Below the pieces are notes generated by a model. It did not search any database. It had not been told where the DNA came from and saw nothing but the letters and a program-made list of their open reading frames with translations. Below, in pieces: positions 1,954 to 31,418 of a stretch of DNA of 35,676 nucleotides. This DNA comes from Clostridia bacterium (GTDB taxonomy: Bacteria; Bacillota; Clostridia; Oscillospirales; CAG-272), in NCBI GenBank assembly GCA_017453405.1, contig JAFTKF010000201.1, positions 1 through 35,676 of the forward strand, in the 5' to 3' direction. Made by a program: the position numbers and the translations under genes. Position 1 is the stretch's first letter. Each line of letters opens with the position of its first letter.

Positions 1954-4116
1954 ATGAAAAAAGCGATCTGTTTCTTTCTTACACTTTCTCTGATCATAGG
2001 AGGTATCGGTATGATTCAGCTATTTGCAGAAGGTGAGCTTCTCACCACCAACAAAACCGCATATACGCTCGACGAGCCGATTACGGTGACAGCCGTTGGC
2101 TCGGGCGCGGACTGGGTGGGCATCTATTATCCGGGTGCACCCAATTCGATCCGCTGGGTCTATGTGGAGGATGTCGGCTCGGGTGTGGCATTTGATATGC
2201 GCACCGTGGGCGAGGTCAATGCAGGCGCACCCGAAACACTCGGAGAAGGGCGTTACATCATCCGTCTGATGCCCGATGATACCACCGATCTTTCAAGAGC
2301 GCTTGCCGAAATTGAGATCACGGTGGGCGATGTGGCATCGCTTCCCGCCGTTGGTGGCGACACTTCCCGTCTTTCGGTTGAAAAAACCACCTTCGCGTAT
2401 AACGAACCGATCCGCGTTTCTGCAATCGGCTCGGGTAAGGACTGGGTCGGCATTTATTATCCCGGCGAAGCCCACTCAATCCGTTGGGCATACGTGACCG
2501 ATGTCGGCTCGGGCGTGGCTTTCGATGTGAAGACCGACACGCAAGATAACGGCTCTGCCCCTGCCGTCTTACCCGCAGGCGAATACATCATTCGCCTGAT
2601 GCCCGACGATACCAGCGATCTGAACCGCGCGATCGCGTGGGTGAATGTCACCATTGAAGCACCCCCTGCCGAAAAGCCCGAACAGCCGCTTTCGGCGACC
2701 TACACCCTCAAAAACGAGACCGACGGCTTTGCCGAGGGCACGATTCGTGTAACACTGGCAGAAGGAAGCGCCGCCACCGACATCCTTCCCTATTGGGGAG
2801 ATGAAAACGGCAAGCTTTCGGGCTATACCGCACTTGCGAAATTCAAGGTCACAGGCGCGACCACCGAACGGGAGATCGGTAAGAATATTCTGATTCCCCC
2901 GGGTGCTACCAAGCTGCTTCTTTACACCGTGAACGCAAACGGCGAAGTATCAGAAGAGCCGTATACCGTCGACCTTCCCGAAAATGCCGCCGCAAAGCCC
3001 TTTGGCGAGCCGATCGTGGAATTTCAGGCTGTCAGTGATATTCACCTGAACGCTTCGGCAAACCACACCTATAATGTCAATTTCAAGAAAATGCTGAAGG
3101 ATGTCGCCCTGACCAGCCCCAATAGCATTGGCATATTCATCGCGGGCGACATTGCCGACCACGGCTATGCGGAGGAGTTCAGACAGCTTACCGCCCTTCA
3201 CGCCTCGGTAGAAAACGCGCCTGAGTATTTTCTTGCCATCGGCAATCACGATCTGTATAACGGCTCGTATCAGGAAAAGCTCGCGCAGTTCCTGCAGTAT
3301 GCCAAGCTGCCGGACGGTGAAACTCCCACAAGCTCGCATTACGATTTCCGGCTGAATGGCTATCACTTTGTCTTTCTCGGTAACGATGCCGCTCCCGTGA
3401 ACGGCGTCGAAACCACCCTGAACCCCGCAACGATCCGCTGGCTTGACGAAACCCTCGCCAAAGACCGCGACGCGTCAAGACCCACCTTCGTGTTCCTGCA
3501 TCAGTCTCTCTACGACACCGTAGCGGGAAGCCTTGCCGGTCAGGGCTGGGACGGCGTTTCTAACGAAACCGGACTTCGACTGACCCTGAAGAAATATCCC
3601 GAGGTCATACTGTTCAACGGTCACAGCCACTGGACACTGGACTCCGAGCGCAATATGTACACGCGCTCCGACTCGCTTCCCACAATCTTCAATACCGCTT
3701 CGGTTGCCTATCTCTGGACAAGCTACCGTGTCACGGGCGGCGAAAATCTTGACGGCAGTCAGGGCTATTACGTTCGCGTTTACGACGATCAGGTGCTTGT
3801 ACTCGGCAGAGATTTCACCACAGGCGAATGGATTCCGTCGGCAATGTATGTCGTACCGTATGAAAAAGCGCCCTCGCAAACGCCCACCGATACCACCGAA
3901 GCGCCCAATACCGAGCTGACGCCCGACACCACCGAAGCTGACACCGTCACCGACACGCCGACAACGACCGACACCCCCACGACCACCGATACAGCAAAAT
4001 CCCCCAAGGATGACAAAACGCGCTCCCCCATTGGACTGATCCTCGGGATCGCCGCCGCTGTCATCGCCGTCGGTGCTGCTGTAGCGTTCGGTATCATAAA
4101 GAAAAAGAAACACTAA
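1954..4116 (+). CDS. Secreted, C-terminally membrane-anchored calcineurin-like metallophosphoesterase with two N-terminal repeat domains
   Basis: N-terminal signal peptide MKKAICFFLTLSLIIGGIGMIQLFA. Metallophosphoesterase motifs in order: VSDIHLN, GDIADHG, GNHD, FLHQ, NGHSHW. A Thr/Pro/Asp-rich stalk (TDTPTTTDTPTTTD) precedes the terminal TM helix LILGIAAAVIAVGAAVAFGII plus KKKKH. Confidence 0.85.
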   Translation: MKKAICFFLTLSLIIGGIGMIQLFAEGELLTTNKTAYTLDEPITVTAVGSGADWVGIYYPGAPNSIRWVYVEDVGSGVAFDMRTVGEVNAGAPETLGEGRYIIRLMPDDTTDLSRALAEIEITVGDVASLPAVGGDTSRLSVEKTTFAYNEPIRVSAIGSGKDWVGIYYPGEAHSIRWAYVTDVGSGVAFDVKTDTQDNGSAPAVLPAGEYIIRLMPDDTSDLNRAIAWVNVTIEAPPAEKPEQPLSATYTLKNETDGFAEGTIRVTLAEGSAATDILPYWGDENGKLSGYTALAKFKVTGATTEREIGKNILIPPGATKLLLYTVNANGEVSEEPYTVDLPENAAAKPFGEPIVEFQAVSDIHLNASANHTYNVNFKKMLKDVALTSPNSIGIFIAGDIADHGYAEEFRQLTALHASVENAPEYFLAIGNHDLYNGSYQEKLAQFLQYAKLPDGETPTSSHYDFRLNGYHFVFLGNDAAPVNGVETTLNPATIRWLDETLAKDRDASRPTFVFLHQSLYDTVAGSLAGQGWDGVSNETGLRLTLKKYPEVILFNGHSHWTLDSERNMYTRSDSLPTIFNTASVAYLWTSYRVTGGENLDGSQGYYVRVYDDQVLVLGRDFTTGEWIPSAMYVVPYEKAPSQTPTDTTEAPNTELTPDTTEADTVTDTPTTTDTPTTTDTAKSPKDDKTRSPIGLILGIAAAVIAVGAAVAFGIIKKKKH
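2056..2658 (+). repeat. Intragenic tandem duplication: two ~91-aa domains with a 330-nt period
   Basis: Residues 35-125 and 145-235 align colinearly (DEPITVTAVGSGADWVGIYYPG...RYIIRLMPDDTTDL versus NEPIRVSAIGSGKDWVGIYYPG...EYIIRLMPDDTSDL). The similarity is also visible at nucleotide level. Confidence 0.85.
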
Positions 4117-4166: not shown

Positions 4167-4915
4167 TATTGTCTTCTGATCACAAAATACAACGCTTCGT
4201 CGGTATCCTTCGGGGGCTCTTCCTCGGTTGAGCCGTAGACAGCAACCGTTTCAAAGGCGTGTCTTGTATACGCCCTCTCGATCGCCTCGGGCGAAAACCA
4301 GACCTGCCGCTGACTTTCCTCAAGACGCCGGTAGCTTTGGTTTTTTCCTTCTACAAAAAAGGTCAGATCAAATGTCGCGGCGAGCGGCTCTTCCTCTACG
4401 TGATTCTGCCAGATGCAGAACACACCGTCTTCATCGTACGCATAGGTATTCTCCCCGTAGGTGTGACGGAATTTATAGGCGGTATTGACATCGAACACGA
4501 AAATGCCGCCGGGCGCTACAAAATGCTTCAGTCGCGAAAACAAAGCGTCAAGATCGTCTTCGGTATCCAGATAATTGATCGAATTGAGACAGCAGTAGCC
4601 GCCGTCCACCGTGCCGTAGAGATCAAGCGCACGCATATCCTGACAGAGATATAAGGGATACAGCTCCGCTTCGTCACTGTTGTCACGTGCCGTCATCAGC
4701 ATATCCTCGGAGAGATCGACCGCGATCATATCATAGCCGCTTTTCGCAAATTTCACGGTCAGAATGCCCGTACCGCAGGCAAGGTCAAGAACCGTCGCGC
4801 CCTTTTCGATCCCGTGCCGCTTGAAAATGCGATCGATCATACGGTAGATCCCGTCATAATCAACCGAAGCATTCAGCGTGTCGTAAAAGCGCGCAAGCAC
4901 CGTATAAGCATTCAT
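4166..4915 (-). CDS. Class I SAM-dependent methyltransferase
   Basis: Motif I VLDLACGTGILT, followed by an acidic loop (AVDLSEDM) and a post-I/II pattern. The start overlaps the upstream stop as ATGA (4912-4915). Confidence 0.85.
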   Translation of the reverse strand: MNAYTVLARFYDTLNASVDYDGIYRMIDRIFKRHGIEKGATVLDLACGTGILTVKFAKSGYDMIAVDLSEDMLMTARDNSDEAELYPLYLCQDMRALDLYGTVDGGYCCLNSINYLDTEDDLDALFSRLKHFVAPGGIFVFDVNTAYKFRHTYGENTYAYDEDGVFCIWQNHVEEEPLAATFDLTFFVEGKNQSYRRLEESQRQVWFSPEAIERAYTRHAFETVAVYGSTEEEPPKDTDEALYFVIRRQ

Positions 4916-7449: not shown

Positions 7450-8445
7450 TCACTCGCTGATGATAAACGGGGGCGGTGTCTTTGAAAAATACAAGGTTTG
7501 ACTCTCTTGAGAGTGATAGAAAAAAAGCTTCTGACAAGCTGTTGGTGTCCACGTGCCACCGAGATACGCCACAGCATCGTGAAGGGTCTCTTCGGCAAGC
7601 ACCTCTACCGCCGCTTTACCCACGCGCATTGTACTGCCGCAGACCGTCGCAAAGCGAAGTGCCATCGCTCCCTTGCCCGAAAGCTGTTTTAACAGCGGCA
7701 GCGCATCCCCGAAGGAAAGATCGGTCTCGACCTCGCCATAGGCGCGGCGAAAGAGCGAAAGCAGGGAGAGAGGGGAAAAATTCTGTCGTAATTTGTCGAA
7801 TACCGCCCCGATCAGCAGCCGTTGCGCACGCATTCTGCCGTAATCGGCATCGGGATAGGCGTTGCGACAGCGCACAAGTCCCTCTGCAGCCGCGCCGTCA
7901 AGATGCTGTTCGCCCGCCTTCAGATGGATGGTAAGCCCCTGCTCGGGATCAACGTAATCAAGCGCACAGGGTAAGGTCAAGGTAACGCCCCCGATCGCAT
8001 CGATCAGGGTCGAAAGTGCCGAAAGTGTCAGCGTGGCGTGCGCCTTCACCGTCACGCCAAACGCTTCCCCCAGCCGCTCGGCAAGCACCTTGCCCCCGAC
8101 GGCATACGCCTCGCGGTCGCTTTTGCCCTCATTTTTCGCCTTTACGCAGGCGGCGGCAAAATGCGTGTTCAGCCGTCTGCCGTCTGCTGTCAGGCTGTCG
8201 CGCGGAATCTGCAGAAAGGAAAGCCGATCGCTTTCCACGCGGACAAGCATCATCACATCCGCGCTATAGGATGCTTTGTCTACCCCTACCAGAAGATATA
8301 CCCCTTCGGCGGTTTTGGCGCTTGCCGCCGTCGCGGGCGCTTCGAGGGAAAGGCTTGTTGCCTTTTGGCTATTCAGATGAGTGATCGGGCAAAAGCCCAC
8401 GGCAAGAAGAAGGATCGGTAAGATCCCGGCAACGAGTCGACGCAT
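7450..8445 (-). CDS. LytR-CpsA-Psr (LCP) family wall-polymer ligase
   Basis: N-terminal TM anchor, then [23 protein letters not shown]...[11 protein letters not shown], the LCP core pattern. An AAGGAG RBS lies 6 nt before the ATG at 8445. Confidence 0.8.
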
Positions 8446-8532: not shown

Positions 8533-9606
8533 TCAAAATCTGGTAGATAATACGGTGTAGGTGCTCACCAGCACCAAAACATCGGTGTTTTCATCGGCAT
8601 AAAGAGAGGAAAAATCCGAAAGCGTACGGTAAGGGGTGCGCAGATCGCAGACCACGATCTCGGAATACGCGCCCACAAGATAGGGCACAAGCGCACGGGC
8701 ATAGGAATCGCGGAAGAGCACAAGCCGCCTGCCGCTCGTGCACTGCGGATTTTCGATGCGCAAAAGCGCGGATTCCTGTTCACTGCCGAGGTAGACATCA
8801 TACGGGTCGGCAAAGGGCTCTTTCCTATACAGCCCCGACACGCTCTCGCCCCGATACACATTGGCAGAGGCGATCACTCCGTTTGCATCATACAAAAGCA
8901 TAAAACGGTCGGTATAGTCGCCAAGCGGAATTTGCGCGGCAAGTGTGCCTTTCGCCTCCCGTCCGTCCACGGGGAAAAGCCCCGCCGTCGGCTCAAACCG
9001 CATTGCCTGCCCGAGAGAGACGGCAAAGTCCCGATAGCATTCGGCACGCACGTGGATATCCCCCCGATAATAGCTGTCATAGGCAAGGGTGTGTGCGGTA
9101 TCGACCGGCAGAAACCGCCCGTCCTCGGCGATCGTTCGCCACGCATCGGTATAAATGCTGTCCGTTCCCCGATAATGCCCCTTGTGCGCAATAAGGGAAA
9201 AATACGCCTCCTTGCCCGAAAGAAAGGCAGAAAGATAGTGCGCGATCGTATCGAGATTATCGAGAAGCAGTGCTTCATCATAAGCAGGCGGCAGTTTTTC
9301 AAGGGTGGTCTCACACACGCGGATATCCCCGATGCGCGGATTGGCAAAGCCCTTTTGCATCGTGTGGGCATACAGTGTCAACAAGGCACGGCGACACGGG
9401 AGGCGATCCAGAAAATGCGCATCCAGCGCGGCAATATACTCCCCTTTTTCAAAAGCCTCATAGGAAGCCTCGGGAACGGGGGCGGCCTGCCGCCGCTCCT
9501 CTTCGATCATCAAAGGGGCGTCGGATAAAGACAGCCATACCCCGCCGCCCACAAGCACCAACAGAAAAAAGAAAATGGTAAGCCTGTCAAAAAACCGTTT
9601 CATCAT
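8533..9606 (-). CDS. AlgJ/DltD-like (DHHW-type) extracytoplasmic partner of the MBOAT acyltransferase
   Basis: I start it at the ATGATG at 9606, which overlaps the MBOAT stop (TGATG). The signal anchor is MMKRFFDRLTIFFFLLVLVGGGVWL. YYRGDIHVRAECY resembles the D-x-H(W) catalytic motif region of AlgJ/DHHW proteins. The longer ORF to 10086 lies inside the MBOAT gene. Confidence 0.55.
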   Translation of the reverse strand: MMKRFFDRLTIFFFLLVLVGGGVWLSLSDAPLMIEEERRQAAPVPEASYEAFEKGEYIAALDAHFLDRLPCRRALLTLYAHTMQKGFANPRIGDIRVCETTLEKLPPAYDEALLLDNLDTIAHYLSAFLSGKEAYFSLIAHKGHYRGTDSIYTDAWRTIAEDGRFLPVDTAHTLAYDSYYRGDIHVRAECYRDFAVSLGQAMRFEPTAGLFPVDGREAKGTLAAQIPLGDYTDRFMLLYDANGVIASANVYRGESVSGLYRKEPFADPYDVYLGSEQESALLRIENPQCTSGRRLVLFRDSYARALVPYLVGAYSEIVVCDLRTPYRTLSDFSSLYADENTDVLVLVSTYTVLSTRF

Positions 9607-10986: not shown

Positions 10987-11595
10987 CTAGTTGCCTGCCA
11001 ACGAGAGAATGGCATCGCACACACGCTGATAGCGCGTGGCATCGCCGTCCATCACCAGAACGACCGTATCACCGATCGCATAGGTCTCATAATGTTCATA
11101 TGTCGCACAAACCAGCTTGCGCGGATCGACATTTTTCTTGATCGAGGCGGCAAGCGTTTTGGCGGCATCGGCAGAGCTTGTCTTTAGTATACCCAAAAAG
11201 AACGGAATTGTACCAATGATCGGCTGACAAATTGCCGCTTCCTTGACATCACCTGTCGGCTGTACGAAAAAGTGATAGGAAAAGGTGCTTTTGTCCTTCA
11301 GATTCACGCTGTCGATCACGGTGGTAAGATCGTTCCCGATCGAAGGCTTCAGGGCGTTCAGAATCTCCTGCGCCGTCATCGACGAAAAGCTCGGAGGCGT
11401 ATCTACCCCGCCGGAAGCATCGGCGGTGGTATCGGGCGCTGTCGTGATGTCAGTCGTGCCGCCGTTTGCCGAAGTGTCGGGTTGCGTGTCGACGGTCGCC
11501 GAGGATGTGGTCACGGGCGCTGTGGTTACGGCAGGTGTCGCGCAGGAGACAAGCAATGCCGCAAGAAGCAAAAGTGCAAATACAGCTTTTTTCAT
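10987..11595 (-). CDS. Small lipoprotein (DUF4358-like by context and composition)
   Basis: MKKAVFALLLLAALLVSC has an L-V-S-C lipobox. It is followed by a Thr/Pro-rich linker and a ~120-aa globular domain. An alternative ATG lies at 11607. The 254-aa ORF to 11751 runs through the leader and promoter. Confidence 0.7.
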   Translation of the reverse strand: MKKAVFALLLLAALLVSCATPAVTTAPVTTSSATVDTQPDTSANGGTTDITTAPDTTADASGGVDTPPSFSSMTAQEILNALKPSIGNDLTTVIDSVNLKDKSTFSYHFFVQPTGDVKEAAICQPIIGTIPFFLGILKTSSADAAKTLAASIKKNVDPRKLVCATYEHYETYAIGDTVVLVMDGDATRYQRVCDAILSLAGN

Positions 11596-11752
11596 AAAAA
11601 TTACCATGGCTTTCGTTTGCGAAAGCCTTCCTTTCGTGGGGAATTGGGGCTGGTTTTGCGTAGCAAAATCGTTGTTGTAAGACAACGAAAGCCACAAAAC
11701 CCGCGTGAAAAGAATTTTCACGCTACCTCTCAAAGAAAAATAGATTGCCATT

Positions 11753-11781
11753 ATTCTACCACAAAGTCAGGAAAAAGTAAA
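11753..11781 (-). promoter_or_regulatory. Possible promoter for the minus-strand envelope operon
   Basis: On the minus strand: TTTACT (11781-11776), 17-nt spacer, TAGAAT (11758-11753). It would give a ~150-nt structured leader. Confidence 0.3.
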
Positions 11782-11799
11782 GTCAATCGCTCTTTTTTC

Positions 11800-11828
11800 T
11801 TGCATTCTTTTCTAATATATGTTATAAT
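11800..11828 (+). promoter_or_regulatory. SigA-type promoter with extended -10 for rlmD
   Basis: TTGCAT (11800-11805), 17-nt spacer ending in TGt, TATAAT (11823-11828). It is divergent from the minus-strand operon. Confidence 0.6.
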
Positions 11829-11885: not shown

Positions 11886-13223
11886 ATGAAGAAAAACGAG
11901 CTTGCTGTTTTGACGATCCTCGATATCAATAACCGCGGCTATGGCGTAGCGCGTGCCGAGGACGGGCGCGTGGTATTCGTCGCCAATGCCGTTACGGGCG
12001 AAACGGTGCAAGCCAAATATATCAAAGTCACCAAGGACTACGCCGTGGCGCGTGTGGAAAAAACGCTGACCAAAAGCGCCTGCCGCATTCCCTCCGACTG
12101 CCAAGCATTCCCTGCCTGCGGCGGGTGCGTGTATCGCCATATTGCCTATGACGATGAATTGAAGCTGAAGGAAAACTATGTCAAAAGCGCCTTCAAAAAG
12201 GCAGGCGTTGCCATCACCGTCGCGCCCTGTGAGTACGGCGACACCGAGGGCTATCGCAATAAGATCGAATGTCCCTTGACCGACGGCTACAAAGCAGGCT
12301 TTTATGCCGCCAAGACCCACCGCGTGATCGCGGCAGACGACTGCAAGCTGGAAAAGCCACAGCTTCGCGCAATTATGACCACCGTGACCGCGTGGCTGGA
12401 GGAGAACGATATTCCGCTCTATCACGAGGAAGACGGCAAAGGGCTTGTTCGGCATATCTATCTCCGTATCGGTGAAAAATCGGGCGAGGTATCGCTTGTG
12501 CTCGTTTTGAACGGAAAAACGCTTCCGCACGCCCAAGACTTTGTCGATACCGTCACACAAAAACACCCCGCGGTCGTATCTATCCTTCTTTCCCATAACG
12601 AGGAAAACACCAACGTGATCCTCGGAAAAAGCGCCACTCTCTTGTACGGAAAGGACGAGATTGAAGATACGCTCTGCTCGCTGACCTTCCGCCTATCCCA
12701 CCGCTCCTTCTATCAGGTCAATGCGCATATGGCGGAAAAGCTCTATCAAAAAGCGCTCACCCTTGCCGCACTCACCCCCGATGACACCCTTGCCGACCTC
12801 TTCTGCGGTGTCGGCACGATCGGATTATTTATGCTGAAGGAATCGGGCGCAAAATCGCTCCTCGGCATCGAGATCATTCCCGAAGCCATCGAAAACGCAC
12901 GCCGCAATGCCAAGCTGAACGGCATTGAAAACGCCACCTTCCTCTGCGGCGATGCCAATCGCGAAGAGCTTGCCTCTGCCGATGTCATCGTGGTCGACCC
13001 ACCAAGAAAGGGCTGCGAAGAATCCCTCCTTTGCCGCATCGCCGCTATCGCCCCCAAACGCCTCGTCTACATCTCCTGCAACCCCGACACCCTCGCAAGA
13101 GATGTCGCAGTGATGGCAAAGTATGGCTATACAACCGATACCGTATATCCGTTTGATCTGTTCCCGAGAACAGGACACGTTGAGAGTGTCGTTTGTCTGA
13201 CGAGGTCAGACAAAGCGACGTGA
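11886..13223 (+). CDS. rlmD: 23S rRNA (uracil-C5)-methyltransferase, RumA/RlmD type (TRAM domain plus 4Fe-4S cluster)
   Basis: N-terminal TRAM-like OB fold, cluster cysteines CRIPSDCQAFPACGGCVYRH, SAM motif DLFCGVGTIGL, DPPRKG, and ISCNP with the catalytic Cys. The C-terminus is FDLFPRTGHVESVVCL. Confidence 0.93.
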   Translation: MKKNELAVLTILDINNRGYGVARAEDGRVVFVANAVTGETVQAKYIKVTKDYAVARVEKTLTKSACRIPSDCQAFPACGGCVYRHIAYDDELKLKENYVKSAFKKAGVAITVAPCEYGDTEGYRNKIECPLTDGYKAGFYAAKTHRVIAADDCKLEKPQLRAIMTTVTAWLEENDIPLYHEEDGKGLVRHIYLRIGEKSGEVSLVLVLNGKTLPHAQDFVDTVTQKHPAVVSILLSHNEENTNVILGKSATLLYGKDEIEDTLCSLTFRLSHRSFYQVNAHMAEKLYQKALTLAALTPDDTLADLFCGVGTIGLFMLKESGAKSLLGIEIIPEAIENARRNAKLNGIENATFLCGDANREELASADVIVVDPPRKGCEESLLCRIAAIAPKRLVYISCNPDTLARDVAVMAKYGYTTDTVYPFDLFPRTGHVESVVCLTRSDKAT

Positions 13224-13317
13224 TATAGACGCCTTCGGCGTCGTGATATGCGCCTGCGGCGCGTGATATGGACACCTGCGGTGTCGTGATATAGAACGCT
13301 ACGCGTTCGTGATATGT
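13176..13317 (+). repeat. Left copy of a 142-bp direct repeat (last 16 rlmD codons plus five GTGATAT-hairpin units)
   Basis: It aligns without gaps to 14486-14627 (offset 1310) with 4 mismatches (13181, 13202, 13204, 13220). None of the mismatches falls in a stem. Confidence 0.95.
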
Positions 13318-13507
13318 CGCTTGCGCGACGTAAGGCGATGGCGTTCCACGCGCACAAAGTGCGCATATCACGCCGAGCAAAGCGAGGCTATATCACGAAA
13401 GCCAACGGCTTTCCATATCACGCTTGCGCAGCAAGCATATCACGACGGCATCGCCGTCCATATCACTCTACCGCAGTGGACAATTCATATCACTCCGCGT
13501 TAGCGGA
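13188..13507. repeat. Hairpin array: 12-13 short stem-loops separated by the conserved linker GTGATAT(A/G) (5 forward copies), then its complement ATATCAC (6 copies)
   Basis: Forward motifs start at 13220, 13243, 13263, 13286 and 13309. Reverse motifs start at 13365, 13390, 13415, 13437, 13460 and 13487. Perfect stems between them all differ in sequence: gacgcc/ggcgtc, gcgcc/ggcgc, gacacc/ggtgtc, gaacgc/gcgttc, gtcgc/gcgac, gcgcac/gtgcgc, gaaagcc/ggctttc, gcttgc/gcaagc, gacggc/gccgtc, tccgc/gcgga. A 14-bp hairpin (13188-13219) is built from the rlmD terminal codons. Confidence 0.9.
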
Positions 13508-13520
13508 CAAAGGAGTATTT

Positions 13521-13874
13521 ATGCCCAAAACCTCCCACGAGCTTGCAATTGAATTTGCAGTTGAAATCACTGAATTATGCTCAAAAATAAAGGGTCGCCC
13601 CGAATATACAAAGCAGCTTATTCGCAGTGCATCTTCAATCAGCGCGAACATTGCGGAAGCAAAATATGCCGAAAGCAACGCTGACTTCGTTCATAAGCTT
13701 GAAATAGCCCAAAAGGAAGCAAACGAAACAGAAACTTGGCTTAGTGTTTTATACAAGAGCGGTATTATTGACGAAGTGACATTCAAATCTCTGCGCAACA
13801 GGTGCGGCAAGATCAGAAGAATGTTGATTGCTTCTATTACAACTGTTAAGACCAAAATAAACGGACAAAAGTGA
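13521..13874 (+). CDS. Four-helix-bundle protein (23S rRNA intervening-sequence protein / DGR Avd-like family)
   Basis: 117 aa from the ATG at 13521 (AAAGGAG RBS). The family signature is LIRSASSISANIAEAKYAESNADFVHKLEIAQKEANETETWL. The ORF-track extension to 13314 is read-through of the repeat array. Confidence 0.85.
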   Translation: MPKTSHELAIEFAVEITELCSKIKGRPEYTKQLIRSASSISANIAEAKYAESNADFVHKLEIAQKEANETETWLSVLYKSGIIDEVTFKSLRNRCGKIRRMLIASITTVKTKINGQK

Positions 13875-13934
13875 GTTTTGAACAAAACGAAATAACTCTA
13901 CTCAGCGCTAAAATTATTTATGAAAGGTTTTATT

Positions 13935-14345
13935 ATGATACCACTTAATATCAAATGTAGTAAATGCGGTGCAATTTGCAGCATATCAAGCCACAGAAAG
14001 TTTACAGTATGTCCGTATTGCGGAGAAAAGACTCCATTTGAGGGCTTTACTTATAGAGAGATAAATCGAAAATCGAGCAAATATGCAAACGTAAAAAAGG
14101 AAATGGACTGCCCGTCTTGTCGAAGCCCTCATATGTTTCTTTATTATTCGTTATTTGGTAAATGGAGATGTGAAGACTGTGGTTACACAATTTCAAATTT
14201 CAATAAAATGTTTGGTGTTTTTTGGTTTTGCGATAATTGCGAGACATATATGAATATTCAAGAGGGGTTCACCACAAAAGAGAAAACGTGGACTTGCACG
14301 GAGTGTGGCTTTAAAAACAGTGTCACTAAAGATGATATTCTTTAA
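13935..14345 (+). CDS. Small triple zinc-ribbon protein (six CxxC pairs), function unknown
   Basis: CSKC/CPYC, CPSC/CEDC and CDNC/CTEC pairs. The ATG at 13935 has a GAAAGG RBS; an upstream in-frame ATG lies at 13920. The region is very AT-rich (I counted 18 G+C in 13921-13980). Confidence 0.75.
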   Translation: MIPLNIKCSKCGAICSISSHRKFTVCPYCGEKTPFEGFTYREINRKSSKYANVKKEMDCPSCRSPHMFLYYSLFGKWRCEDCGYTISNFNKMFGVFWFCDNCETYMNIQEGFTTKEKTWTCTECGFKNSVTKDDIL

Positions 14346-14461
14346 CATTTAAAGAGAATTGCAAAGAGAAGAGAAAAATCTTCTTGATTTTATAACAAAT
14401 AAAATGTGTTGTAAGCAAAAATGAGAACTTTTGGAGTTTTCACTCCCATTTTTCAACCATT

Positions 14462-14533
14462 TTTATACCTTTTGGAGTCTTGACCCACGTGGAGAGTGTC
14501 GTTTGTCTGACAAAGTCAGACAAAGCGACATGA
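14462..14533 (+). pseudogene. Orphan duplicate of the rlmD 3' end (reads ...HVESVVCLTKSDKAT-stop)
   Basis: 14486-14533 is near-identical to 13176-13223, including the stop. The preceding ~24 nt translate to IPFGVLT, which only loosely resembles FDLFPRTG. There is no upstream ORF body. Confidence 0.8.
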
Positions 14534-14627
14534 TATAGACGCCTTCGGCGTCGTGATATGCGCCTGCGGCGCGTGATATGGACACCTGCGGTGTCGTGAT
14601 ATAGAACGCTACGCGTTCGTGATATGT
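14486..14627 (+). repeat. Right copy of the 142-bp direct repeat. Degenerate hairpin units continue to ~14700
   Basis: See the left copy. After 14627 the sequence diverges but keeps the same grammar: hairpin, then CGTAATGC (compare CGTAAGGC at 13329-13336), then gccgc/gcggc and acagca/tgctgt hairpins up to the RBS of the next gene. Confidence 0.95.
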
Positions 14628-14715
14628 ACCCTACGGGCAACGTAATGCCGCGCTCGGTGCGGCGTGTGGGGTGCTGACAGCAGAAGTGATGCTGTAATGC
14701 AAAAAGGAGACTGCT

Positions 14716-15768
14716 GTGAAAGAAGAAAAAAGTATAATAGAAGCAATGTCTGAGACCTTAGCGGATGCAATTGGGGATGACGATTTTTCTCTGCCGCTTG
14801 CCGCGTGGCAAGCAAGCGCTTCCGCATCCGAAGCAATCAATATGGCGTATCGGGAGGAAATCAAACGATACCGGGAAAATCCTGTCCCCGTTTGCAACAA
14901 AGCCGCTGCGCAAAAGCTTTTGAAACGCTTTTCCCGCAAGGATTTTCGCGATTTTTGGACTGCTCCCATCGAAGAATATCTTCCCGCTGTCAGCGAAGGT
15001 ACGATGAAGCTTTGCGAAACGGTTTATCCGCATACCGAAGCGATTCGCTATGCCAAAGAATTGATCGCGACACTTTCGCCAAAGGAATTGGCAAAAGATT
15101 TTCTTTACGGTGTTGCACACAATGCGTCCGAATTCAGAACGGCGCTTGCCTGCTATTACTACATAAAAAATCTCCCCGAGCACGAATTTGAAAAGAAATA
15201 TGTTGGCTCTGTCGTAGGCAAAGACGGTGCATTCGAGGACAGATACAACGAAACCGGATGTGAGATCTGCGGCTATCAGCACGCTGTCAGCCTTGAGCCG
15301 AAAATGCAATTCTGGCACATAAATACGGATATGGCAAATTTCTATTTTGACGGGCGAATGGAGCGTTCCTCACTCAATACGGCAATCATCTTTTTAGAAG
15401 AATATAAAACGGTATCCCGTCCCGAACATTCCATTGCCGATTACAAGCATTTCAAGAAAGTGATCGAGGTTATCGAAAACACACCGCAAACGATGACATC
15501 GGGAAAGCTTCGCCGCGAATTAAAGCAATCGGGACTGCTTTCAATGACACAGGATCAAATCGGGATTTTCATTAACACGCTCGGTTATTTGGATATTCTT
15601 CATTCCGATGATTCACACGGTATGATTTACTCGCACACACCCGAAAAAGAGATGCTGTACCCGCTCAGCGACAGAGGCTATGCCGCACATCCTGTAAACC
15701 GTTGGACGCGCAAATGCGGTATTGACTACGATAGCATTTCCCTGCTTTTTGACGGGCTTTACGAATAA
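14716..15768 (+). CDS. Hypothetical 350-aa soluble protein, no recognisable domain
   Basis: GTG start at 14716, 6 nt after AAGGAG. The ORF is long and uninterrupted with a plausible mixed helical composition. It has a single CEIC pair. Confidence 0.7.
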   Translation: MKEEKSIIEAMSETLADAIGDDDFSLPLAAWQASASASEAINMAYREEIKRYRENPVPVCNKAAAQKLLKRFSRKDFRDFWTAPIEEYLPAVSEGTMKLCETVYPHTEAIRYAKELIATLSPKELAKDFLYGVAHNASEFRTALACYYYIKNLPEHEFEKKYVGSVVGKDGAFEDRYNETGCEICGYQHAVSLEPKMQFWHINTDMANFYFDGRMERSSLNTAIIFLEEYKTVSRPEHSIADYKHFKKVIEVIENTPQTMTSGKLRRELKQSGLLSMTQDQIGIFINTLGYLDILHSDDSHGMIYSHTPEKEMLYPLSDRGYAAHPVNRWTRKCGIDYDSISLLFDGLYE

Positions 15769-15835
15769 GATCTGCTTTTTGCGCGGTGCCGGGCGTTTCA
15801 CAAGAGGAATGGTTAGTATAGCGAAAGGAATACGT

Positions 15836-16297
15836 ATGCAGAAGAGTAACTTGATCATAACTCGTCACGACAACAAAATAACAATTAAGAAAAAACCTGA
15901 GGTTGCACATTGTGTGATTTTCACAATGGTATTTCTCGCAGGGATTTTCCTTCCTATCGTTTTGGATGAGCTAAGAGATGTTGAATTATTTTGGGTGGTT
16001 TATGCCTTCTGTATGTTGACGAATATCGCCACCTTTACATCGGTTTTCTTCGGAAAAATCGTGGTTGACTCCGATAAGAGAGAACTCAATATCTATAATT
16101 TGTGCAGAGAAACGTACCCTTTTGAGGATGTGAAAGAACTCAAGAGTTTCTTTAAAGAGGGGGATTCCGACGGCGGAATGGATACCCACAAAGTGTTGTT
16201 CATATTTACAAACGGGCATCAAAGCGAATTGCAAACAACAAGCCAAGAGCAAACACAGGAACTGATGGAACTATTGAAGTCAATGATATATTCGTGA
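15836..16297 (+). CDS. Small membrane protein: two TM helices plus a beta-rich (bPH-like) C-terminal domain
   Basis: The ATG at 15836 follows GAAAGGAA. TM helices are VAHCVIFTMVFLAGIFLPIVL and FWVVYAFCMLTNIATFTSVFF. The TGA stop is embedded in a GTGATATA motif (16294-16301). Confidence 0.65.
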   Translation: MQKSNLIITRHDNKITIKKKPEVAHCVIFTMVFLAGIFLPIVLDELRDVELFWVVYAFCMLTNIATFTSVFFGKIVVDSDKRELNIYNLCRETYPFEDVKELKSFFKEGDSDGGMDTHKVLFIFTNGHQSELQTTSQEQTQELMELLKSMIYS

Positions 16298-16335
16298 TAT
16301 AATAGCGCCTTCGCCGTCCATACCGTGCACATCAC
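16283..16335. repeat. Degenerate relic of the GTGATAT / ATCAC hairpin array
   Basis: ATGATATA (16283-16290), GTGATATA (16294-16301), then atagcgccttcgccgtc (compare gacgccttcggcgtc in unit 1), then ACATCAC (16329-16335). Confidence 0.5.
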
Positions 16336-16361
16336 AGTAGATTAAGAAAGGAACTATAAAA

Positions 16362-16874
16362 ATGACCAACCGTACCGCGTACACGTATGATCTTTTACTC
16401 AAAACCAATCTCTTTCTGGTAGAAAAGGAGAAGCGAAAGGGGTTGATTACTTGTTTTCTGATGGGGGTCATTGGCATCACTTTTATCCTTATGGACTCAC
16501 TGTCAGAAGATTATTATTGGTTATGTGCCGGGGGCGGATTTTTTGCCGCTTCGCTCCTCAGGCTCTTATTCATACTGAGACTCAGAAAATCGAAGGTTTC
16601 CGAAACGGTAAAAAAATTTATCCAAGAAAATCCCGGAAAGACAGTGGACTATCAATTTGAAGAGAATGCTGTGATCATTCGCGAGAGAAGTCCTCAATAC
16701 CAATCGGATACTTGCCTTTCCTATTCCTTCATCCACAAAGTACAAAAAATTGATGATACCACATTTTATTTTATTTCCTCCAACAACCGCCTCTATGCGG
16801 TAGAGGACGATCGGAATATGGAAGCGATCCTTGTATTTTTAGCGGAAAAAGTGGGAATATGCCTCGAAAAATAA
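16362..16874 (+). CDS. YcxB-like / bPH-architecture membrane protein
   Basis: Two central TM helices (LITCFLMGVIGITFILM, WLCAGGGFFAASLLRLLFIL) followed by a ~90-aa beta-rich domain. The RBS is GAAAGGAA. Confidence 0.65.
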   Translation: MTNRTAYTYDLLLKTNLFLVEKEKRKGLITCFLMGVIGITFILMDSLSEDYYWLCAGGGFFAASLLRLLFILRLRKSKVSETVKKFIQENPGKTVDYQFEENAVIIRERSPQYQSDTCLSYSFIHKVQKIDDTTFYFISSNNRLYAVEDDRNMEAILVFLAEKVGICLEK

Positions 16875-16920
16875 TGTCACCGTTCCGATATCCCAACACA
16901 CGATCGAAAGGAATATTGTT

Positions 16921-17427
16921 ATGATCCCCTACTACTTACAGAAGCACCTGACCGACATACGCGAAAAGAAGGATACCACATCGGCGATCCTTGCCTCCTC
17001 GACCGGCAACACCTTGTTGGAAATCCTGTATTACGGCGACACGGTGACGATCAAGCGGACACCGTATATCACAGACGGCGAGTACCCCTGTCTGATCGTC
17101 GCCAGAGACCCTCTCACCGACGAGACCTTCACGGTTTTTGACGGCGCCAAGCACGGCTATGACGCTATGTTTTGCAATGAGCCATGCGACAAAGCGGAAA
17201 GACCCCTGACTCGCTACAACGCCGAGGGTGCAAGCGTGAAGATCACGCTTGGCTATGCGATCGATTACGAGGACGAAAAAGACGATTATGACTTCACCGA
17301 AACGGGCGAGGTCATCCTCACGTACGGCACAATGGACTGGGAAAAAGCCAAGTCCATCGGCTTCGACTGGCTTTCGCTCTCGTTTGTTGACACCAAAAAG
17401 GAATTTGTCGACCTTGAACTGGTGTAA
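16921..17427 (+). CDS. Hypothetical 168-aa acidic soluble protein
   Basis: The RBS GAAAGGAA precedes the ATG at 16921. I recognise no domain. Confidence 0.65.
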   Translation: MIPYYLQKHLTDIREKKDTTSAILASSTGNTLLEILYYGDTVTIKRTPYITDGEYPCLIVARDPLTDETFTVFDGAKHGYDAMFCNEPCDKAERPLTRYNAEGASVKITLGYAIDYEDEKDDYDFTETGEVILTYGTMDWEKAKSIGFDWLSLSFVDTKKEFVDLELV

Positions 17428-17475
17428 AAACAATCCTTGCCGCGCTTCATTTTTCTTTACGAAAGGATATTGCCT

Positions 17476-18501
17476 ATGCATGCGGTCATTTTTCTCCTGC
17501 TGACACTGATTGATATTACCTCTCTTATTCTGATCGTGAGAAGACTTCGCGACATTCGGAAAAACCCTCACAAATATGATGAAACTGAGCTTGTCAACAG
17601 AGCTGACGACTATGCGAGCAACCGGGACTATTGCCGATTTTTCAAGTCGCTCTCTCACCAATACAGCGGAGTCGGACTGCTTCTTTCCTTTCTCCTGACA
17701 GCTCTCAGCGGCGTACTGCTTTGGGTGCTTGACCGACTGATCGCGGGAAGCGGAACTTCCATCACCCCGGGGGCTCGGGGAGCAGGCATTGTCGCCATGC
17801 TTTTTCTGAATCTGATCGTTGGTATCGCGATCATTCCGCTCCATATCAAAACCCCCTTTTTCACCGTGATGGTCGACGGTGCCTTTGACGGAAACCGTCG
17901 GGATATCTGGAAAAAGAGTTATATCGCCTTTCTCATTCTGTTCGCCATTACTTTTCCGTTTTTCACCCTTTCAGCCAATCACTATACCCACTACAACGAG
18001 AGTGGGATCACCCATTCTGCCTTTTTCCAAATCGACGAGACTTTTACGGCGTATGAAGAGATCGAGGATGTATGGATTTCGGTCGGTCATAACAAGCACG
18101 GACAGTTCTCGGCACTACGGTACGAGGTCTTGCTGTCAGACGGCAGACGCCTTGATCTTTCAAGCACCTATTACAACGAAAACACCCTTGCCATTCACCG
18201 CTATATCGAAGCGACAAGCAATTGCCGTATGCATATCGAGCCTCTCAGCGAGGACGACCTTGCCGAGCTGCAAGAGAGGCTATCCCCCGAACGGCTTGCC
18301 ATCGTTTTGTATATTTTCGAAGGCATTCACGAAACGGCAGAGCCGTCCTCCTTTCACGCCGTCGAAGACGGCATATCACGCTTGCAAAGCAAGCATATCA
18401 CGGGGCTGAGGCTGAAAAAGCCCTTTGTTGACAAATGCGTCGAAAAGCTTTCGCACTGCGATAAGGTAAGCGTGCAAAACCGCTTTCAGGAAAACCCCTG
18501 A
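17476..18501 (+). CDS. Membrane protein (about 4 TM helices) with a soluble C-terminal domain. The last ~60 codons run through a repeat array
   Basis: The ATG at 17476 follows AAAGGA. The first ~170 aa contain TM helices. From about 18324 the reading frame is made of ATATCAC-hairpin units, so the native stop may have been displaced. Confidence 0.6.
   Translation: MHAVIFLLLTLIDITSLILIVRRLRDIRKNPHKYDETELVNRADDYASNRDYCRFFKSLSHQYSGVGLLLSFLLTALSGVLLWVLDRLIAGSGTSITPGARGAGIVAMLFLNLIVGIAIIPLHIKTPFFTVMVDGAFDGNRRDIWKKSYIAFLILFAITFPFFTLSANHYTHYNESGITHSAFFQIDETFTAYEEIEDVWISVGHNKHGQFSALRYEVLLSDGRRLDLSSTYYNENTLAIHRYIEATSNCRMHIEPLSEDDLAELQERLSPERLAIVLYIFEGIHETAEPSSFHAVEDGISRLQSKHITGLRLKKPFVDKCVEKLSHCDKVSVQNRFQENP
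18324..18423. repeat. Third array locus: ATATCAC-type linkers (2 perfect, 2 degenerate) alternating with 5 hairpins
   Basis: In order: CATTCAC (18324-18330), acggc/gccgt hairpin, TTTCAC, gccgtc/gacggc hairpin (18358-18372), ATATCAC (18373-18379), gcttgc/gcaagc hairpin (18380-18394), ATATCAC (18395-18401), gggct/agccc hairpin (18403-18423). The gcttgc-NNN-gcaagc unit also occurs at 13422-13436. Confidence 0.8.
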
Positions 18502-18632
18502 TACGCGTTTTTCCAAAGAAAGGAAAATAGACAAATGAAGGTTTTTATGAAAAGCCAAGTGACGGATGATTCTTACCCAATCCTGACAAAATTGGCGCCG
18601 TCGCAATTCTATCATAAAGGAGTACTGCAATT

Positions 18633-19292
18633 ATGGGACTGTTTTTCAAAAAAGAAGCACCCGATCACCGCTATGTACAGGTCAAAATGACCGTGAACGG
18701 CGAAGTCACCTTGGGCTGGATGGTGGATTCGCTCGCCGAGGATGAGGAACAAAACCGCTCGTCCTTCAATAAAAAATACGGCATCAGCTACATCCGCTCG
18801 ATTCCCGATGAGGTGGACGGCTATCCCGTGCTCGGTCTTACGCCAAGCGCGATGCGCTCACTTTACAGCCAACGCACCACGCTGCCCCAAAACGCCGTAT
18901 TCGTTTGCCTGCGCACTGCCCAGCAACGCTTTCTTTCGGCAAAATTCGACAGCGACAAAGAATATGCCATTCCAAGACTGCAATCGAATCTACCGTGGAA
19001 GATCAGCTTTTACAGCAGTGACGGTGTTGGTTATACGCATTACACCGTGCGCGGCGGCTATATCTCGCAAAAAGACGAAAACGGCGAAAAGCGTGAGCTT
19101 TGGAATCTCCGCTTACAGCATTACGGAATGGATGCGCACACCAAGGATGTCCTGATGCATTTCGCGGCAGATATACACACCTACGAGGGCAAGAAAATGG
19201 GCTACGGCGAATTCTGGCCCTGCCTTGTCCGCGAGGATATTGCGGATAGCTTTACCCTGCTGTTTCCCCGAAACGGCGAAACCTTCTTTTAA
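18633..19292 (+). CDS. Hypothetical 219-aa protein
   Basis: An AAAGGAG lies 10 nt upstream of the ATG. I recognise no domain. Confidence 0.6.
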   Translation: MGLFFKKEAPDHRYVQVKMTVNGEVTLGWMVDSLAEDEEQNRSSFNKKYGISYIRSIPDEVDGYPVLGLTPSAMRSLYSQRTTLPQNAVFVCLRTAQQRFLSAKFDSDKEYAIPRLQSNLPWKISFYSSDGVGYTHYTVRGGYISQKDENGEKRELWNLRLQHYGMDAHTKDVLMHFAADIHTYEGKKMGYGEFWPCLVREDIADSFTLLFPRNGETFF

Positions 19293-19320: not shown

Positions 19321-20091
19321 ATGAAAGCCTGTGAATTATTTCGTGAACTGCTTGCGGGCGCGACACTGCCCGACAGAACCTGTGATACCCTGAAGGCAGG
19401 CGACCCCGAACGCGAGGTCAAAACGATTGCCTTTACGATGTTTGCCAGCGTCGAGGTGATCCGCGAAGCTATCGCTTTCGGTGCGGATCTGCTGATCACG
19501 CACGAGCCCACCTATTACAATCACTATGACGAGCCGATGGACGATCCCATTTACCGCCAAAAGCACGCTTTGATCGAGGAATCGGGGCTGGTCATCTACC
19601 GCTATCACGACGGGATGCATTTTCGCGATACCGACCGCATCACCGAAGGGGAATTGAAGGCGCTCGGCATCACGGGACAGTTTGTAAAGACCTCCTATGC
19701 CGCCTCCTACCGTCTCACGGCAGACGAGCCGATCGCGGCAAGCGAGGTGATCGCGCGCGCCCAAGACCGCCTCGGCATCCGCTATGCGCGTGCGGCAGGC
19801 GATCTTGCGCATCAAACGACAAAAATCGCCGCCTGCTTCGGCACACCCGGCGGTGTCTTTGAGCTGTTACGCGATCCCGAAATCGATATGGTTCTGACCG
19901 GCGAAACCTGCGAATGGGCGCTTTGTGAATACGCACGCGACGCATCCGCTCTCGGCATCCCGAAAGCCCTTGTGGTGATGGGGCATATCGGCTCGGAAAA
20001 GGGCGGTATGATGCACCTTGCCGACACCGTTGCCGCCGCCCATCCCGAGCTTACGGTACGCTACCTCGAATGCGGCGAGGCGTACTGCTGA
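19321..20091 (+). CDS. Nif3-family dinuclear metal-centre protein
   Basis: From the ATG at 19321 (GGAG RBS): V..IAF....S.EVIREAIAFGADLLITHEP and a C-terminal GHIGSEKGGM pattern. The ORF-track start at 19225 overlaps the previous gene. Confidence 0.75.
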   Translation: MKACELFRELLAGATLPDRTCDTLKAGDPEREVKTIAFTMFASVEVIREAIAFGADLLITHEPTYYNHYDEPMDDPIYRQKHALIEESGLVIYRYHDGMHFRDTDRITEGELKALGITGQFVKTSYAASYRLTADEPIAASEVIARAQDRLGIRYARAAGDLAHQTTKIAACFGTPGGVFELLRDPEIDMVLTGETCEWALCEYARDASALGIPKALVVMGHIGSEKGGMMHLADTVAAAHPELTVRYLECGEAYC

Positions 20092-30087: not shown

Positions 30088-31032
30088 CTACGGTTGCTTC
30101 GCGCGGGGTTTTCTAAAACAACGCCATAAAACGATACAGATCGCGCAAAGTGTGCCCAATACAATCAGGATGATAGCATAGAATGCCCACATATTGTAAA
30201 TGCCAATCAGCAAACTAGGTTGTGATTGGACAGGTCGTGCCGATACAATCGCCCCACCCACACGGTAAGGGGTAAGATCCATACCCACATCATCTTCCAA
30301 TGTAACATCGCCGTATGAAAGCTTCGCCCGTTTTTCAGTAACACGCGAGGCAAACGCGCAAAATTGATCGAGCGGCATCAATACGCCGGGATAATTGACG
30401 GATATTTCACCCCGGGCATAATCGTGATAATAAACATAATCACCCTTTGTGGTGATGAAATAGAGATAAAAACCGTCGCGCGAAGCTGTTCCGTCAAGAC
30501 AGTACAGCTTCACAATCTCGATTTTCTCGCTTGACTTGGTTGCGACCGTTGAATGAAACATGGAATCGGGAGAAAATATTGTATTGACCGTCGCACGAAG
30601 AGGCGAAGTCTCTAAAGATGAATACAAGCTTGTGAAGCTGCCGTCGGCATTTTTTTGATATTCTGAAAGCGAAAGCGAAGAAACTGAAACATAGCTTTCC
30701 TGAACATCGGTCTTTGCAAGCATTGCATCCAAAGAAAGGCATTTGGCAAAATCCGCCATAAACGAGCCACGGTACAGCTTTAACACTGCCAAAACACTGT
30801 CATTACGGATAGCGGATGTTTCTGAGCGCGACACCGCCAATGAATCGTTACGGCTTTGGGAAAGCGTTTCTTGATACGTAGGCGATACGGTAATCGGCGT
30901 TTGAGCGGAATTCACAGAGTCTTCTGTGGTAACAGACAACGCCGCTGATTCTTGATCCAATGCATATACCGTAATAACCGAGCAAATTGCAAGTACCATA
31001 ATGATTACCAATAACAAAAAATGCTTCTTCAT
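30088..31032 (-). CDS. Hypothetical bitopic surface protein (N-terminal signal/anchor plus C-terminal TM helix)
   Basis: MKKHFLLLVIIMVLAICSVITVYA at the N-terminus, AFYAIILIVLGTLCAICIVLW near the C-terminus, and a Ser/Thr-rich N-terminal region. The RBS is GGAGGT. Confidence 0.7.
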   Translation of the reverse strand: MKKHFLLLVIIMVLAICSVITVYALDQESAALSVTTEDSVNSAQTPITVSPTYQETLSQSRNDSLAVSRSETSAIRNDSVLAVLKLYRGSFMADFAKCLSLDAMLAKTDVQESYVSVSSLSLSEYQKNADGSFTSLYSSLETSPLRATVNTIFSPDSMFHSTVATKSSEKIEIVKLYCLDGTASRDGFYLYFITTKGDYVYYHDYARGEISVNYPGVLMPLDQFCAFASRVTEKRAKLSYGDVTLEDDVGMDLTPYRVGGAIVSARPVQSQPSLLIGIYNMWAFYAIILIVLGTLCAICIVLWRCFRKPRAKQP

Positions 31033-31044
31033 AGAATAACCTCC

Positions 31045-31314
31045 TTATCCAAAATAGTACGGTATTGTATTTTGCGAATAATCGGTATCGACCGTAATTG
31101 CACATTCCCACACACCGGTATCGGGAATTTCTCCGCTTACTGTGTTACGACCATTAATCAGTTTTACATATGAATAAAATTCAAATACTCCATTTGTCGG
31201 TCCGGGATCTTGAATAAGATACAAATATGTATTACCACTCTTTACATAACCGGTTATAACCATCATATGTCCTCCATTACGAGACCCAATCGATGTGATA
31301 TCCGAAAAGCGCAT
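31045..31314 (-). pseudogene. Probable remnant: His/Asp half of a papain-like (C39-like) cysteine peptidase lacking the catalytic-Cys half
   Basis: GGHMMVITGY...IQDPG resembles the His-loop region of C39-like peptidases. It has no signal peptide and no Cys motif. A separate 16-codon signal-peptide-like ORF lies upstream (31336-31386). Confidence 0.4.
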
Positions 31315-31347: not shown

Positions 31348-31418
31348 TGTAATGAAAAGAAAACGCATAGTCATTGTATACTTCATCGCAACTACTCCTC
31401 AATTTATTTTCTATTAAT

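Follow-up and report, generated by a model that had tools for sequence, protein, structure and literature searches.

Staphylococci carry stacks of staphylococcal cassette chromosome (SCC) and pseudo-SCC elements at the 3' end of rlmH (orfX). The units of these stacks measure 3-60 kb, and some have no recombinase and are moved in trans by serine recombinases (ccr). In streptococci, rumA is a common target for integrative and conjugative elements (ICEs) as well as for integrative and mobilizable elements (IMEs), mainly with serine integrases, and tandem accretion with decayed partners is frequently seen (PMC5357655). At the 3' ends of the conserved streptococcal genes rumA, rpsI, rplL and fda, such stacking is described for ICEs, IMEs and integrase-less cis-mobilizable elements (CIMEs) (PMC5357655, citing Pavlovic 2004 and Bellanger 2011). 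Here we describe a locus in a Clostridia bacterium (Oscillospirales, CAG-272; assembly GCA_017453405.1). The DNA analysed, called the window below, is the whole 35,676-nucleotide (nt) stretch of contig JAFTKF010000201.1. It holds the 23S rRNA methyltransferase gene rlmD, whose 3' end recurs downstream in a 142-nt direct repeat. With a probability of about 0.6, we read the two 142-nt copies as the left ends of two adjoining cassettes, both small, integrative and non-autonomous, within a tandem array whose anchor is the final 16 codons of rlmD.

The SCC and pseudo-SCC stacks at rlmH may be the nearest analogue. As in our locus, they are anchored at the 3' end of a gene for an rRNA methyltransferase, copies of the site are repeated between stacked units, and some units have no recombinase. 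They differ in gene and clade, their units are larger and have neither hairpin arrays nor four-helix-bundle genes, and ccr is known there. Streptococcal accretion shares with our locus the insertion at a gene end, the direct repeats that include this end, the stacking, the integrase-less dependent partners and the rumA/rlmD target. A first reading of the window, made without database searches (the sequence-only reading), had named this gene as an insertion site of some streptococcal ICEs; it is indeed a documented target, with the qualifier that the elements mainly have serine integrases (PMC5357655). However, the units described here measure 0.7-1.3 kb, carry one or two genes and have a structured leader made of a long hairpin, Gut-1 arrays (small hairpins in series) and a four-helix-bundle gene. 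Furthermore, no integrase-bearing partner was seen here, and the hosts are uncultured Clostridia of the ruminant gut.

The cassettes also resemble those of integrons: they are small, mostly single-gene, recombinase-less and co-oriented, the newest would lie nearest the attachment point, and their borders are defined by hairpins more than by sequence. Unlike an integron, the rlmD stack is anchored inside a housekeeping gene whose end it replaces, and each cassette has its own leader. No intI or attI was found beside the array, the genes upstream of rlmD being MBOAT, DHHW, LytR and similar. No attC cores (RYYYAAC / GTTRRRY) were found at the boundaries, which consist of the long hairpin and GTGATAT-type arrays. 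What is new is a clade-wide array of recombinase-less mini-cassettes in rlmD; its known kind is site-specific accretion and cassette arrays. The structural component of the cassettes could be more novel.

The anchor gene rlmD (11886-13223, + strand) is a 445-amino-acid (aa) open reading frame (ORF). It was named from Pfam matches (tRNA_U5-meth_tr, TRAM and a SAM-methyltransferase family), NCBI-named RlmD homologues and synteny, and encodes a 23S rRNA uracil-5-methyltransferase. A repeat search of the window found one 142-nt direct repeat pair, at 13176-13317 and 14486-14627, with 138 of 142 positions matching (97% identity, BLAST E about 1e-64). Identity breaks off sharply at either side. The copies differ at 13181 (T/G), 13202 (G/A), 13204 (G/A) and 13220 (G/A), followed by 97 consecutive identical bases that consist solely of array units. 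All four mismatches fall outside predicted stems: one precedes the long hairpin on its 5' side, two occupy the hairpin loop, and the first linker contains the fourth. Copy 1 includes the final 16 codons and the TGA of rlmD. Copy 2 reads HVESVVCLTKSDKAT-stop, is preceded by stop codons with the gene body absent, and is thus an orphan rlmD end. GC content, which is 0.54-0.55 in the flanks, falls between the copies, with values of 0.386 (13501-14000) and 0.346 (14001-14500). On all these points the sequence-only reading held: the near-identical repeats (checked by repeat search and by base count), the orphan end, the mismatches off paired positions with two in the big loop, and the low-GC segment of 1.17 kb. 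It had also found only a four-helix-bundle and a zinc-ribbon protein in this segment, with which Pfam agrees, and no integrase or transposase. Among all sizeable ORFs of the window, Pfam matches no integrase, transposase or reverse transcriptase.

The unit next to rlmD, cassette A, can be followed base by base (all features on the + strand). Its left end is repeat copy 1 (13176-13317), which comprises the replacement rlmD end together with the long hairpin and covers most of the forward array, stopping in the linker that precedes the final unit of that array. The long hairpin (13188-13219) has 14 pairs and one bulge in the predicted fold, with the stop codon at 13221-13223. The forward array (13220-13329) has five units, each made of the linker GTGATAT and a variable, GC-rich, Gut-1-like hairpin, starting at 13220, 13243, 13263, 13286 and 13309; these are repeated in copy 2. 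A centre of sequence GTAAGGCGATGGCGTTCCAC (13330-13349), semi-conserved in related modules, leads to the inverted array (13350-13510), with six or seven units of hairpin and ATATCAC, which reaches the ribosome-binding site of the next gene. That gene (13521-13874) encodes the four-helix-bundle protein, of the 23S_rRNA_IVP / Avd-like family, and matches Pfam PF05635 at 91.9 bits against a gathering score of 33.8 (E 3.6e-26). Its tail (13875-13934), kept in related cassettes, holds the ribosome-binding site of the cargo gene (13935-14345), which encodes a 136-aa multi-zinc-ribbon protein according to the Pfam scan and homologue comparison. The right-end motif (14427-14485) comprises two copies of CTTTTGGAGTyTTsAC and has TTGACC directly before the next CAC. 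There begins copy 2 (14486-14627), the left end of the next, older unit under our reading, with the orphan rlmD end at 14486-14533, its long hairpin at 14498-14529 and a forward array.

A cassette extends from the His codon of rlmD to a right end of the form ...CTTTTGGAGyCTTGACC. Its parts follow in this order: a replacement rlmD end with a hairpin of 14-18 bp, a forward and then an inverted Gut-1-type block (linker of 7-8 nt), usually the four-helix-bundle gene and its tail, and one or a few cargo genes.

The start of the cassettes is exact. At every boundary with an intact orphan end it is the His codon of rlmD, in the context CAY GTN GAR (loci in other genomes and contigs are given by L numbers). 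Homology between L207 and the window starts at 13176, the C of this codon; the copy in L208 is shortened by 9 nt. At the joint, CA alone is invariant; which base stands third in the His codon depends on the cassette. The same point separates diverged from shared sequence between species. In L129 and L256, rlmD identity is 63-75% over the 600 nt that precede CATGT; starting with CATGT, 50 of 50 bases agree, a stretch that takes in the hairpin, the stop codon and the first linker. In L266 and the window, identity is 73-83% upstream and 45/48 from CAC. The near-perfect proximal borders, 138/142 in the window and 50/50 between species, argue for recent transfer of small units.

Furthermore, module types are told apart by their linkers. 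Type W (GTGATAT) is present in the window and in L266 (rlmD 82% identical in aa). Type G (GTGAAGTT) forms the rlmD end of L126 (81%), which is identical to the second orphan end of L256. Type A (ATGAATTG) is found in L256 (80%), L290 (76%) and L129 (56%). Across these loci, module type is not in line with how closely the rlmD genes are related.

As for related genomes, the order rlmD, variable stretch, NIF3 and polysaccharide deacetylase is kept in the window, L267 and L289, and the content between rlmD and NIF3 differs per species: one LRR gene in L267, three unknown genes in L289 and a TIR gene in L269. The richest stretch, in L256, holds at least three cassettes together with IS3 and AbiTii. 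There, rlmD is followed by three orphan rlmD ends, at ~11990, ~14614 and ~15630. The full end motif of ~60 nt, finishing TTGACC, stands before the first and second, and a shortened motif, finishing ACAACC, before the third. Behind each come a long hairpin, the forward and then the inverted array with a centre between them, and one cargo ORF. The boundary copies of L256 are only ~70% alike, with different linkers.

Across related genomes, one to three additional orphan rlmD ends lie downstream of rlmD, most with the end motif before them; it is absent before the decayed orphan end of L267. In L207, the end motif, an orphan end, arrays and a four-helix-bundle gene come first, and a homologue of the 350-aa ORF of the window (14716-15768) begins directly behind that gene. 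Another homologue of this ORF (76% in aa) lies in L129, 8 kb from rlmD, between a tail remnant and an end motif. The end motif is also found behind other cargo in L211 and L129. Cassettes that have no four-helix-bundle gene still possess orphan ends, and the window, L267 and L129 show boundaries in progressive decay. Finally, rlmD ends without the 3' arm of the long hairpin and without arrays are found in the cassette-free relatives L289, L127, L128 and L269.

The proposal that an element had entered the 3' end of rlmD and supplied a replacement end is therefore supported, and it is extended by the orphan ends of the relatives, the exact junction, the module types that disagree with rlmD relatedness, the cassette-free ends and the cargo genes found again at other places in the arrays. 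The single bracketed cassette of the sequence-only reading is real, and it is not a one-off, as it turns out to be one unit of an array. The same duplication shared by all relatives, which would have spoken for an old local event, is not what the between-species comparison shows.

In the mechanism that we propose, a circular cassette would recombine with the chromosome at ...GGR|CAY... of rlmD by a Campbell-type event. The incoming cassette would complete rlmD, and the previous gene end would be displaced downstream as an orphan, so that the newest cassette would adjoin rlmD. The recombinase would be provided in trans by an rlmD-targeting element located elsewhere, and the process may be active today. 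Decay would follow in the older units, which would lose their four-helix-bundle gene, arrays or orphan end. With CA as the only invariant bases, a serine recombinase with a two-base crossover fits better than a tyrosine enzyme, which needs an identical overlap of 6-8 bp, although the enzyme may also be a tyrosine integrase. One contig, L003, joins the end motif and an orphan-type repeat directly to 13318, which places cassette A behind an orphan-type border. It may represent a circle or a tandem copy, or another cassette may stand in front of cassette A here. It is not proof of a circle, as its first 17 nt are the conserved end motif alone, one base off its own 3' copy.

In the window's long hairpin at the gene end, the 5' arm is made of the coding bases of VVCLT and the 3' arm is their complement. 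Across module types the 5' arm is formed by the coding bases of V-E-S-V-V-C-L, again with a complementary 3' arm, and in types A, G and O3 the stem begins 3 nt past the junction. Its length ranges over 14-18 bp among cassettes. Across six versions of the hairpin, 96 of 98 cells pair, and 7 of 17 pairs are altered on both sides, mostly at codon wobble positions. At least three registers exist: that of the window, that of types A, G and O3, and that of the L208 host rlmD. The window rlmD is identical to that of L289 through GTCGTTTGTCTGACGAGG and diverges from it inside the hairpin loop. A complement of 14-18 nt cannot come from point mutation; it must have been copied from a template or have moved along with the 5' arm. 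We discarded an intrinsic terminator as an explanation, since the T-run after the hairpin is absent.

The small hairpin units, which the sequence-only reading had described as they stand, are real and are probably a variant of the known Gut-1 motif. Gut-1 was reported from the human gut, solely as a candidate non-coding RNA to which no function was assigned (Weinberg et al. 2010, PMC2864571). In a permissive Rfam scan, the full Gut-1 model (RF01706) matched 13218-13297 (42.6 bits, E 4e-7) and 14528-14607 (43.2 bits), with E about 1e-6 overall, and the inverted array gave a weak match on the minus strand. The window shares with Gut-1 the three or more hairpins with unrelated stems, the constant heptamer (GUGAAAU, and GUGAUAU in some seeds) and the inverted version that follows it: in the seed alignment, GUGAUAU members are followed by inverted AUAUCAC units. 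It differs in that both matches stay below the gathering score of 50 bits, and in that the arrays stand at cassette borders and before four-helix-bundle genes, whereas Gut-1 was described without gene association. Arrays of L033, L115, L206-L208, L126 and L256 score 35-58 bits.

In these arrays the hairpin stems differ between units and the GTGATAT linker of the window is constant. The forward and inverted blocks are predicted to fold together, linkers pairing with linkers and hairpins standing as side branches (z = -9.7), and compensatory changes were found at 9 pairs among 5 array copies. Related arrays vary by gain and loss of whole units. Similar arrays are also found in phages of the same habitat. 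A search of IMG/VR with a three-heptamer pattern returned mostly unrelated tandem repeats, with true arrays only in L033, L115 and L120. The phage contig L033 has two Gut-1 arrays in the same orientation around a 98-aa gene, at 3817-3892 (58.2 bits, above the gathering score) and 4298-4379 (44.5 bits). By eye the gene is Prp-like, and its neighbours read as portal and the next head-module gene; such arrays thus also occur inside phage operons.

The four-helix-bundle gene is closely associated with the arrays. Metagenome contigs L206-L210 carry arrays and this gene with 78-84% nt identity to 13176-13888, and each contig has a different downstream gene. The order rlmD, forward array, inverted array, four-helix-bundle gene is present in L126, the genome of the closest species, and in L129, with their own linkers. 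In L212-L216 (e.g. L213 2670-2725 and 3214-3400), four-helix-bundle genes are flanked by forward and inverted arrays with the linker AGTATCG/CGATACT. The same succession of forward array, inverted array and gene is found in two human-faecal contigs filed as phage (L291, L292), one array set standing behind a tRNA and terminator and the other behind a gene end and hairpin; one of the two contigs shares its sequence context with a Gut-1 seed member. Over 50 metagenome loci that code for relatives of this protein, 19 of them with arrays, periodic linker arrays are ~10 times denser within 250 nt of the four-helix-bundle gene than farther away. Other linkers beside such genes in metagenome contigs are GTGAATT/AATTCAC and GGGAATT (also L226, L237 and L238). 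Our literature search found no paper tying four-helix-bundle genes to hairpin arrays.

The 23S_rRNA_IVP / Avd-like family is very large, and to our knowledge no role is known for it outside diversity-generating retroelements (DGRs). The 23S rRNA intervening sequences of Leptospira and Coxiella also combine an ORF of this S23p/four-helix-bundle family with strongly self-complementary sequence beside it, and have long been suspected of being selfish or once mobile (PMC4990558). In contrast, the ORF of the window lies between rlmD and a zinc-ribbon gene and not in 23S helix 25 or 45, its structured region stands before the ORF and not around it, and the window contains no rRNA gene.

The gene is also lost in places. 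In two L256 cassettes with a visible tail (~11530-11545 and ~14840-14855), its last four codons alone are left, fused to the inverted array, and L129 (~18960-19000) retains the conserved tail of the gene. In the window, an 8-nt direct repeat CGGACAAA lies on either side of the ORF, at 13505-13512 and 13861-13868. This suggests deletion between short repeats, or that the ORF comes and goes independently.

Several results weigh against a stack of cassettes moved in trans. No empty site and no strain free of cassette A was found in the window's species: a look-up of the exact rlmD, four-helix-bundle, zinc-ribbon and 350-aa proteins reached five assemblies, four of them from one sample series, and all contigs with these proteins carry the cassette. 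The single-copy allele named as a check in the sequence-only reading did not appear there, and cassette-free rlmD ends are limited to other species. In the sister species, the first cassette is identical in all of 10 contigs, which come from different samples; this indicates that turnover is slow or has stopped. Compared with what defines ICEs, IMEs and CIMEs, the locus has the direct repeats containing the gene end and the constant junction position, and no integrase or other recombinase in the window or within 10 kb in L256, L129, L267 and L289, where only the IS3 transposase of L256 was seen. Searches of IMG/VR for attP patterns (rlmD end with hairpin arm; TTGACC|CACGT) gave chance matches only, and BLAST of 13100-14750 against GenBank phages and PLSDB plasmids gave no match. 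Fragments of rlmD are absent from ICE-like contigs with a zinc-ribbon homologue and from array-bearing phage contigs. Lastly, if L003 is a circle, its sequence would put the crossover within the 97 identical bases rather than at CAY, a position that homologous recombination would fit equally well, and the length of the window pair (97% over 142 nt, against ~70% in L256) may come from a recent homologous exchange or gene conversion.

The last two points lead to a rather unlikely alternative, in which the arrays behave like repetitive extragenic palindromes (REPs) or bacterial interspersed mosaic elements (BIMEs) and recombine through RecA, by unequal crossing-over, Campbell integration of circles or gene conversion. 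The 142 nt would then be the homology left by the last event, which accounts for the repeat length in the window. The 97-base identical stretch is made of array units alone, and the L003 junction would need its crossover within it if L003 is a circle or tandem copy. Arrays of the same type exist elsewhere in the island (16294 and 18334-18430) and in phages of the same habitat, and arrays differ by gain and loss of whole units. However, recombination between arrays leaves unexplained why every boundary has one fixed start base in one codon, why a conserved end motif stands before most orphan ends, and how the L256 boundaries arose, which are ~70% alike with different linkers. Quite unlikely, in our estimate, is that the locus is a fossil, the decayed remnant of one or more large ICEs, IMEs or prophages that targeted rlmD, with integrase and transfer genes deleted and the repeats left as old, immobile attL/attR scars. 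Content is stable across samples in two species, and the boundaries of the window, L267 and L129 decay progressively. Homologues of the zinc-ribbon cargo lie in accessory regions of ICEs, and decayed elements are known from accretion (PMC5357655). Such a remnant is hard to reconcile with the near-perfect proximal borders, 138/142 in the window and 50/50 between species whose rlmD is 63-75% identical. Random deletion of large elements would also not be expected to leave uniformly small cassettes (0.7-1.3 kb) with a common leader.

Two further explanations were rejected. A DGR, with copy 1 as variable repeat, copy 2 as template repeat and the four-helix-bundle protein as Avd, is highly improbable. 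The order of target-gene end, Avd-like gene and second repeat is DGR-like, and three of the four mismatches have A in copy 2. Against this, no window ORF matches an RVT family, there are just four differences, one of them not at A, and the majority of A positions stay the same. A non-coding hairpin array makes up two thirds of the repeat, cassettes without the four-helix-bundle gene keep their orphan ends, and rlmD is a housekeeping enzyme and not a ligand-binding protein. Both the reverse transcriptase and the adenine pattern are thus absent. We likewise see hardly any chance that the duplication is an assembly artefact, caused by mis-joining of reads at the repeat. Several contigs of the organism do break at arrays, but the copies differ at four positions and each junction is found again in independent assemblies, which stem from different samples and different assemblers: L001 runs from rlmD into copy 1, L002 covers 13221-16364 at 100%, and L004 spans the cassette, copy 2 and the next gene.

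Beyond the trans-mobilised cassettes that we favour, we tentatively raise a broader and more speculative idea, itself on the unlikely side. The Gut-1 arrays, the gene-end hairpin and the four-helix-bundle gene might form a structure-guided cassette platform not described before, comparable to the integron and anchored in rlmD. Borders would be recognised as folded DNA or RNA, a templated process would generate the hairpins, complements of the host's coding bases among them, and the Avd-like protein would have a part in recognition or processing.

Downstream of copy 2, the older part of the island (14628-19292, + strand) holds six co-oriented ORFs of unassigned function, at 14716-15768, 15836-16297, 16362-16874, 16921-17427, 17476-18501 and 18633-19292; none has a Pfam or PADLOC assignment. 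Decayed array remnants lie at ~16294-16335 and 18334-18430. The ORF 17476-18501 appears to run through three decayed inverted-array units (18334-18430), and its homologue in the L256 island (80% in aa) is ~45 codons shorter. The NIF3-family gene (19321-20091, + strand; Pfam) is the conserved distal border of the variable island. A second sharp GC drop, at 31001-31500 (0.348), lies between an unknown ORF and an ABC-transporter operon.

Other occupants of the spot behind rlmD were seen in relatives. In L127 (rlmD 68% identical), two direct repeats of ~280 nt at 11330-11810 are followed by a GIY-YIG-nuclease-like gene. A TIR-domain gene lies in L269 (11348-12343) and an AbiTii abortive-infection gene in L256 (13620-14522), so this hotspot is able to house anti-phage genes. 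PADLOC matched no cargo of the window itself.

As for the zinc-ribbon cargo, we rejected it as a hidden recombinase or defence gene, its matches to the zinc ribbons of transposases and Cas12f being below thresholds. One homologue (57% in aa) lies in L293, from another gut bacterium, amid three direct repeats of ~35 nt with sequence GTTGAACGATATACCATTTTTAGTCGGTCATTCAGG (7645-7680, 7918-7953 and 8566-8600). This locus, like L294-L296, is a long series of small accessory genes, and the repeats may mark a separate cassette-like system. Another homologue (51% in aa) lies in L297-L301 (e.g. L297 5032-11436), in the accessory region of an ICE-like element. Its neighbours are a MobA/MobL relaxase, a primase, a TraG-like gene and NlpC/P60, with an adjoining Endonuclease_NS_2 gene and a type I restriction system.

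Taken together, the Gut-1 motif, the four-helix-bundle family and the rlmD-NIF3 hotspot of ruminant-gut Clostridia were three loose ends that are now linked in a testable way. Even a conservative reading yields a precise junction, a definition of the cassette and a set of loci for experiments. If the cassettes are moved in trans, they would provide these bacteria with a compact exchange of single genes between species that leaves the housekeeping gene whole. Should the hairpins arise by a templated process, this mechanism would in itself be new. Lastly, if the structure-guided platform holds true, Gut-1, without function since 2010, and the 23S_rRNA_IVP family would each gain a function.

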